Source: a virus (lineage: Duplodnaviria; Caudoviricetes). Taken from it: a stretch of 64,000 nt of DNA. Shown piece after piece: positions 1 through 486 of this stretch; position 1 is the first letter of the stretch; each line of letters opens with the position of its first letter. The stretch covers positions 1-64,000 of IMG/VR virus record IMGVR_UViG_3300048598_000163, one strand, 5' to 3'. A program made the position numbers and the translations under genes. Under the pieces are notes generated by a model. It ran no database searches, had not been told where the DNA came from, and worked only from the letters and a program-made list of their open reading frames with translations.

Positions 1-308
1 CGACAACGAAGATACGGCGGCGTCGCTGGGCCACTCCGAAGTATTGAGCGTCAAGCACCCTGTAGGCAAACCCATACCCGAGTTCTCCCAACATATCGAG
101 GAAGGTTTTGAAGTCTGCCCCCCCCCGCTGGATAGAACGCCGGGCACGTTTTCCCAGACAATCCAGGAAGGCTTGTAATAGTCTGCAATAGCTCCATAAA
201 CGAGCATGAGATTTCCACGCGGGTCTTCAAGACCCCGGCGAAGTCCGGCAACGGAGAAAGACTGACAAGGTGTTCCTCCGACCAAAAGGTCAACTGTTCC
301 TGAATCAA
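1..308 (-). CDS. Alternative-frame (beta-type) polypeptide overlapped inside the C5-MTase gene, also broken at the G9 tract
   Basis: ORF 51..308 MIQEQLTFWSEE...GKTCPAFYPAGGG joins ...QTSKPSSICWENSGMGLPTGCLTLNTSEWPSDAAVSSLS if the G run were 10; resembles the alternative-frame beta subunit of M.EcoHK31I-type enzymes (recalled, not searched). Confidence 0.55.
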
Positions 309-486
309 TTCCCCACTCCTTGTATTTTGTCATGTCGCCGAAGTTTTTTACATCCGGAAACCTGTGATTTAATACTGAACACGGAAACGGCTCTATTTCG
401 GAGAATCCAACAGGCTTCCAACCAAGAGGTTTCCATGCAACACTTGCGGCCTCAATGCCTGAACAGACGGACAGATAACGCTTCAT
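1..486 (-). CDS. DNA (cytosine-5) methyltransferase, N-terminal part (runs off window; frameshifted at G9 tract 118-126); missed by ORF track
   Basis: Manual translation from ATG 486: MKRYLSVCSGIEAAS (motif I variant), EIEPF (II), GDM (III), LVGGTPCQSFS (IV, catalytic PC), WENVPGV (VI). Motif VIII LDAQYFGVAQRRRRIFVV lies in the adjacent frame starting at 118. Confidence 0.9.
   Translation of the reverse strand, partial: MKRYLSVCSGIEAASVAWKPLGWKPVGFSEIEPFPCSVLNHRFPDVKNFGDMTKYKEWGIDSGTVDLLVGGTPCQSFSVAGLRRGLEDPRGNLMLVYGAIADYYKPSWIVWENVPGVLSSGGGQTSKPSSICWENSGMGLPTGCLTLNTSEWPSDAAVSSLS

Follow-up and report, generated by a model that had tools for sequence, protein, structure and literature searches.

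A homopolymeric run of guanines in the genome of a tailed phage lies where two genes are read from the same DNA in different frames, one encoding a C5 cytosine methyltransferase and the other a protein nested within it, so that a single slip would co-switch both genes and generate reciprocal chimeras. Its position in dual-coding DNA sets the tract apart from its kin, the phase-variable methylases of bacteria and the contingency loci of phages, and two features are specific to the present finding: two alleles occur in one record, and the tract is combined with the nested gene. We put the probability at roughly 60% that the G9/G10 run is a hypermutable contingency (phase-variation) tract co-switching the two overlapping genes. 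A sequence-only reading of this DNA had offered three explanations (a phase-variable switch, a -1 slippery site or a homopolymer sequencing error), and the switch has emerged as the best supported of them by way of the relatives of this phage, in which tract lengths run from 8 to 14, three phases occur within near-identical lineages and the downstream sequence is under selection.

Results

The tract and the ends of the record

The stretch of DNA analysed here (the window, 64 kb) comprises bases 1-64000 of a 78,511-base virus record (78.5 kb). The ends of this record repeat each other, C1:1-154 being the same as C1:78357-78511 except in the tract (154/155 nt). The sole difference between the two copies is the tract length: the contig start, as seen in the window, has G9 and the other end has G10. 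Although the record is entered as linear in IMG/VR, the genome, of ~78,357 bp, must be either circular or assembled with terminal redundancy. Because the record ends overlap, the methylase gene spans the assembly junction, and the repaired G10 allele sits in the same record. It is the arbitrary start of the contig that cuts the methylase gene. The contig ends were joined by script and the alleles then translated; the features of the locus are collected in Table 1.

Table 1. Features of the overlapping genes and of the poly-G tract. Plain numbers are window positions; C1 numbers are positions in the full record
Feature	Position	Strand	Remarks
5' part of the C5 cytosine methyltransferase gene; motifs I, IV (PCQ) and VI (ENV) before the tract	1..486	-	ATG 486
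Methylase stop, across the contig junction	C1:77554-77556 (L002:698-700)		G10 product 429 aa
N-terminal half of the nested +1-frame gene	127..308	-	TTG start 308-306; family homology full length
Shine-Dalgarno-like AAGGAG, 7 nt upstream of the nested TTG	316..321	-	sequence read
Poly-G tract, G9 (C9 on the + strand)	118..126	-	sequence read
Dual-coded stretch after the tract: methyltransferase motifs VII-VIII / nested conserved C-terminal domain	1..117	-	
Stop ending the nested frame after 85 codons in the G9 allele	51..53	-	
Nested gene stop	C1:78186-78188 (L002:1330-1332)		
Duplicate tract copy, G10	C1:78474-78483 (L002:1618-1627)		far contig end

The tract encodes Gly-Gly-Gly in both of the overlapping frames. 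It is the only G/C homopolymer of at least 7 in the 64-kb window, in which G/C runs of 6 number three. The whole 78.5-kb genome holds just one other G/C run of at least 7, a G8 in the gene for a Dam-type adenine methyltransferase (PF05869, E 1e-12), and it follows that both of the long G/C tracts of this genome fall within DNA methylase genes, which together occupy ~2.4% of it. The G8 (G000:C1:69621-69628; L329:5621-5628, minus strand) is situated near the 3' end of the Dam-family N6-adenine methyltransferase gene. At G7 the encoded protein would end at a TAA directly after the tract, and at G9 it would be fused to a downstream ORF of 70 aa. A scan of metagenome contigs with 25-mers specific to this phage returned no match.

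One methylase gene, three reading outcomes

Pfam and NCBIfam models match both halves of the methylase. The frame opened by ATG 486 is a C5 methyltransferase (PF00145, E 8e-26), with motif I at residue 8, PCQ at residue 73 and ENV at residue 112, and motif VIII (QRRRR) is found one frame on, in window 2-124 (PF00145, E 9e-11). The sequence-only reading had placed motifs I-VI in the ATG 486 frame up to nine G at 126-118 and motif VIII in the next frame, and both placements are confirmed by these matches. With ten G, motifs I, IV, VI, VIII, IX and X follow one another at residues 8, 73, 112, 154, 366 and 406 of 429 aa. Possession of this ordered series in one chain, with PCQ as motif IV, ENV as motif VI and QxRxR as motif VIII, makes the product a member of the C5 methyltransferases (PF00145 / TIGR00675). 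No near kin of the phage itself turned up, the closest methylase being 61% identical, and all of the length polymorphism in relatives described below belongs to other lineages.

Translation of the alleles gives a different pair of products for each phase of the tract. The G10 allele yields an intact 429-aa enzyme from ATG 486 and an intact nested protein of 159 aa from TTG 308. In the G9 allele, ATG 486 leads into a 218-aa chimera, in which methylase residues 1-123 are joined to the nested C-terminal domain, while TTG 308 gives an 85-aa stump that stops at 53-51. The G11 allele encodes a 145-aa stump from ATG 486 and, from TTG 308, a chimera of 370 aa made of the nested N-terminal part and the methylase C-terminal part. 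The lengths at which both genes are in frame are G10 and also G7 or G13. The earlier proposals that an overlapping ORF (308..51, TTG start) shifts frame at the same run, that G10 or G7 repairs both frames and that G9 produces a methylase-N/nested-C chimera all agree with these computed translations, and the G10 copy exists at the far contig end. The locus accordingly has the form of a contingency locus: a simple-sequence tract of mutable length inside an ORF, whose frame is lost or restored as that length changes. Only motifs I-VI are read from ATG 486 when the run is G9. Because motifs VIII-X and the target-recognition region are absent from the 218-aa chimera, it is presumably inactive as a methylase.

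The sequencing runs listed for the window were four from wastewater, one from sediment and another from wastewater, all represented by contigs; the contig of a 93%-identical relative leaves the window at base 482 and does not cover the tract. Contigs from the four wastewater runs are ~93% identical to the window from base 1200 down to 482, after which divergence is complete. Base 482 is just beside the start codon of the methylase at 486. Because the match to the wastewater relatives stops so near the start codon, the methylase gene resembles an exchangeable module whose start is a mosaic junction.

The nested frame

On comparative evidence, the nested frame is a real gene. The 159-aa protein that it encodes with G10 has 1,661 homologues of ~150-160 aa, which lack any Pfam domain; identity reaches 78% in the top match (E 8e-39), and the homologues align across all 159 aa, the part before the tract included. 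The part of the +1 ORF after the tract matches phrog_16143 (E 8e-6). Members of the family are recognized as +1 ORFs of ~150-160 aa lying over motifs IV-VIII and ending in a C-terminal block NSGMG ... TLNTSEW ... GILRRAEKRGK.LP, and the nested frame of this phage has these properties. Nested matches lie under methylase genes, one base off, in phages of Caulobacter, Roseobacter, Mycobacterium, Enterobacter and Ruminococcus. Among six phage records checked, the match is to the +1 frame of an annotated methylase CDS in five; in the sixth, FP_Toutatis, it is in frame with a CDS of 202 aa, which is itself a tract-shifted chimera. An open +1 ORF with a match to the family HMM (E 1e-33 or better) is present in 80 of 80 viral loci, on the contigs fetched by the C-part of the methylase at 36-61% identity. 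The suggestion that the methylase gene is dual-coded is upheld by these 1,661 homologues and by the open +1 ORF in every one of the 80 loci.

Two other origins of the signal were considered and rejected. Chance occurrence of the ORF starting at 308 is ruled out by its full-length homology. A match in the alternative frame could also be an echo of methylase conservation, which is ruled out by the third frame, with its 4-11 stops across the nested span, and by the synonymous divergence of the methylase frame, which in one pair of relatives drops ten-fold, from 0.42 outside the overlap to 0.043 within it. Our literature searches found no published description of the nested gene, which is weak evidence of absence. 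In Mycobacterium phage Dove (L005), annotation divides the methylase into CDSs of 249 and 117 aa on either side of an in-frame stop, with a G8 just upstream, and the nested ORF is present in the +1 frame.

Modelled alone, the nested protein gives a mean pLDDT of 60 and a pTM of 0.31, and only a C-terminal pair of helices is predicted with confidence. When the methylase of a related phage (L009) was modelled with the nested family as partner, the complex scored 0.82, against 0.32 for the best control. The mark for this score is reached by 58 of 80 solved complexes and by 2 of 110 mismatched pairs, counts that are rough because our own alignments were used. At least 64% of the contacts are common to the complex-model runs, in which the pLDDT of the partner is at least 66. 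The predicted interface involves methylase residues ~116-190 together with the region of motif IX, and is therefore placed largely in the segment encoded by the shared DNA. The complex model supports a putative binding of this related methylase to the nested protein.

Poly-G at the same site in relatives

With a search pattern of WENVPG followed by 11-15 nt and then G8 or longer, tracts were detected in 53 viral contigs, 63 metagenome contigs and 1 MAG among the genomes of 185,579 species. Deduplication left ~83 distinct sequences from several lineages, of which 60 are in frame, 17 out of frame and 6 undecidable. A tally of tract lengths in homologous phages had been put forward as a check on the sequence-only reading; once run, it revealed pure poly-G of G8-G14 at this site, with all three phases represented within near-identical lineages. 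One large, mainly freshwater cluster (at least 97% flank identity) mixes G8, G9 and G10, and another, delimited at the same identity, comprises G10 (L100), G11 (L138) and G12 (L171). An off-frame G8 allele with identical flanks recurs in IMG/VR contigs of three metagenome ids (L104, L121 and L141), and it has a -1 state like that of the G9 in the window. Run lengths were also compared between contigs at least 96% identical; most of the comparison contigs are metagenome assemblies, which are prone to errors in long G runs. The length differs in 53 of 157 comparisons for G/C runs of 9-10, but in none of 28 for G/C runs of 7-8 and none of 40 for A/T runs of 7. Taken at the level of the assembled sequences, length polymorphism between near-identical genomes is clear in the relatives; in the phage itself, the candidate polymorphism is the G9 and G10 at the two contig ends.

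Tract length also varies in the Faecalibacterium phages FP_Toutatis (L008, MG711466; G9) and Lelie (L207, PP479942; G14), which are isolates, and in MT836117 (L208; G11), a metagenome scaffold from a fecal virome. These lengths belong to a second tract inside the same overlap; over 1.4 kb, the three differ only by this second tract and by one SNP, and none of the three is at an in-frame length (G10 or G13). The pieces of the gene are annotated in these records as separate methylase or hypothetical genes.

Poly-G is a minority trait in the methylase family. The homologous codons in 80 relatives encode SSNGGRDF (AAC GGA GGA CGG) and contain no run longer than 6, and among 120 arbitrarily sampled family members, runs at the tract site never exceed 5. 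G/C tracts of at least 8 are modestly enriched in the methylase gene relative to flanking DNA (3.8 vs 1.15 per 100 kb, p 0.027). Many tract-bearing relatives have two to six poly-G tracts in the methylase gene, while this phage has one. In L184, L178, L090, L103, L155, L158 and L179, there are two to six poly-G/poly-C tracts of 7-12, the lengths of which differ between relatives, and the extra tracts recur at distances of ~290 and 430-465 nt beyond the first. The nested frame of L090 and L103 continues into the C-terminal half of the methylase, giving the layout of a split enzyme.

Off-state products are also present in the protein databases. In at least eight clusters, the methylase N part passes into the nested C domain precisely at SSGGG, and among the 120 top-scoring longer proteins listed, 23 have the nested protein fused to the methylase C half. 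In several database proteins of 300-540 aa (P0124, P0133, P0141, P0160, P0164 and others), the complete nested protein is followed in frame by the target-recognition region and motifs IX-X of the methylase. These fusions suggest a split methylase in some lineages, with the nested protein forming the N-terminal portion of a beta-like subunit.

Selection downstream of off tracts

Two relatives in which the tract is out of frame, L100 and L138, were compared over the part of the gene that encodes methylase only. Their divergence (pS 0.42, pN 0.041) corresponds to a pN/pS of 0.10, which indicates that the methylase downstream of an off tract is kept by selection. In the relatives, therefore, purifying selection persists despite off-frame alleles.

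Discussion

A probable contingency tract acting on two genes

In the mechanism that we favour, slipped-strand mispairing during phage DNA replication would alter the run by one base, probably in a reversible manner, and this one-base change would switch the methylase and the nested gene simultaneously. At G10 (also G7 and G13), the phage would make the full methylase and the full nested protein. At G9, it would make the methylase-N/nested-C chimera and the nested stump, with both functions presumably off, and at G11 a methylase stump and the nested-N/methylase-C chimera. The resulting population would contain methylating and non-methylating phage genomes together, a possible bet-hedge for a phage that may meet either classical or methylation-dependent restriction in its hosts. 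The presence of both G9 and G10 in one contig is consistent with two alleles. Both proteins can tolerate poly-G because glycine is encoded in every frame and falls in loops of both.

A more elaborate possibility is that the tract acts as a three-position switch, re-partitioning two physically interacting proteins into three product sets (both intact; methylase-N with partner-C; partner-N with methylase-C), with the chimeras serving as functional isoforms. Stable fusions of 300-540 aa between the nested protein and the methylase C half, in many assemblies, count in its favour, as do the up to six poly-G tracts per gene in relatives, which would permit combinatorial frame paths. We nonetheless regard functional isoforms as doubtful. 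If they were real, each population would derive several methylation or regulatory states from one stretch of DNA.

Other explanations of the two tract lengths

The G9 copy could instead be a homopolymer error, or an error bubble left unresolved by the assembler, in a phage whose tract is fixed at G10 and whose two genes are intact. The G10 copy on the same contig does give two intact genes, and the discrepancy lies 30-126 nt from the contig ends, where assemblies are weakest. Of the 77 decidable tract-bearing relatives, moreover, 60 are in frame, and the cluster of L116, L148, L152 and L200, which has SSGGGADF like this phage, is uniformly G10 and in frame wherever this can be judged. A contig that carries both lengths, however, needs both of them in the read graph. 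In other lineages, the same off-frame lengths turn up in independent assemblies, and isolate genomes differ in tract length; for these reasons, variation in length is a real biological property of the gene family. An error in the G9 copy of this phage is the less likely, though still plausible, explanation. Degeneration of the locus, with G9 as an inactivating mutation on the way to the loss of the methylase and the nested gene, is scarcely credible. A few tract-bearing relatives (L103 and L142) do have further frameshifts in the same gene, but, the tract aside, nothing interrupts either frame of this phage before its normal end, an intact G10 allele is present in the same record and the pN/pS downstream of off tracts in relatives is 0.10.

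The -1 slippery site proposed by the sequence-only reading is not supported. Programmed recoding on G9 would supply all of the products from one allele, either because ribosomes shift by -1 at G GGG GGG or because slippage during transcription inserts an extra G. Nine G formally contain a slippery heptamer, and recoding would also explain why off-frame relatives retain an intact downstream methylase under purifying selection and why the Toutatis-type genomes are out of frame in three cases out of three. Programmed -1 frameshifting combines such a heptamer with a stimulatory structure and a conserved off-frame arrangement, but the RNA downstream of the tract has no stable structure (z +0.52), and recoding is not a conserved requirement, since 60 of the 77 tract-bearing relatives that could be judged are in frame and a tract is missing from most of the family. 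Near-identical genomes, furthermore, differ in length at the DNA level. Programmed frameshifting or transcriptional slippage is thus unlikely to be required here, and as an account of the G9 allele recoding is quite improbable, although RNA polymerase may slip on the run.

Comparison with known systems

Phasevarions are built on Type III mod genes, and poly-G tracts occur in methylase genes of Helicobacter and Campylobacter. The present locus is like these phase-variable methyltransferases in that the tract lies inside the ORF and creates ON/OFF alleles, with lengths that vary between otherwise identical genomes. It is unlike them in that the enzyme is an orphan phage C5 methyltransferase in a replication module, not a host restriction-modification or regulatory enzyme, and its likely effect would be protection or exposure of phage DNA and not regulation of host genes.

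Contingency loci have been demonstrated in phages for T2 agt and T4 rIIA (Gomez, Barrick and Waters, bioRxiv 10.1101/2025.10.21.683753). The same preprint cites two cases of poly-G, one in receptor-binding genes of Fletchervirus (Campylobacter phage) and one in a methylase gene of Bordetella phage BPP-1. In the BPP-1 sequence record, a run of 8 lies within the methylase gene bpm, which encodes an unrelated adenine methylase and has no match to the nested family. As in the established loci, where slippage reversibly frameshifts the gene and leads to mixed progeny, a homopolymer is found here inside a phage ORF. Unlike the T2, T4 and BPP-1 loci, the tract lies in DNA read in two frames, so that one slip alters two proteins and gives reciprocal chimeras, and its switching is predicted from sequence.

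The nested architecture has a precedent in M.EcoHK31I, in which a beta chain is encoded inside the alpha gene in another frame; alpha is without motif IX, which beta supplies (PMC2836561). The sequence-only reading had drawn this analogy, and it holds for the architecture, since the second polypeptide lies wholly within the methyltransferase gene in another frame. Association of two chains is likewise supported here, by the structure model. The division of motif IX is where the analogy breaks down: the main chain of the phage enzyme has its own motif IX (RRLTPREC, residue 366) and motif X, and the nested protein has only a loosely IX-like helix. A further parallel is Helicobacter canadensis, in which C-terminal sequences are switched by homopolymers (PMC2823697). 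A change in tract length there reportedly swaps, as here, the C-terminal part for the product of another frame and does not merely truncate the protein; the difference is that the alternative C-terminus here is a conserved domain of a separate, widespread protein and not an otherwise unused frame.

Conclusions

Phage contingency loci have been reported only recently, and the present locus extends them to a case in which an enzyme and the overlapping partner with which it probably interacts would be controlled together by a single slip. It also explains an annotation artefact, in that many odd methylase fragments and chimeras in public databases are off-states of such tracts and not separate genes. 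The nested gene has been missed by annotation though it is present across phages of Caulobacter, Roseobacter, Enterobacter, Mycobacterium and gut Firmicutes hosts, and the natural G9, G10 and G11 alleles offer ready-made single-, double- and fusion-knockouts with which to study it. If switching is real, phage populations would hedge between methylated and unmethylated progeny, presumably to their selective benefit, with a bearing on host range and on the opposing pressures of restriction and methylation-dependent defence.
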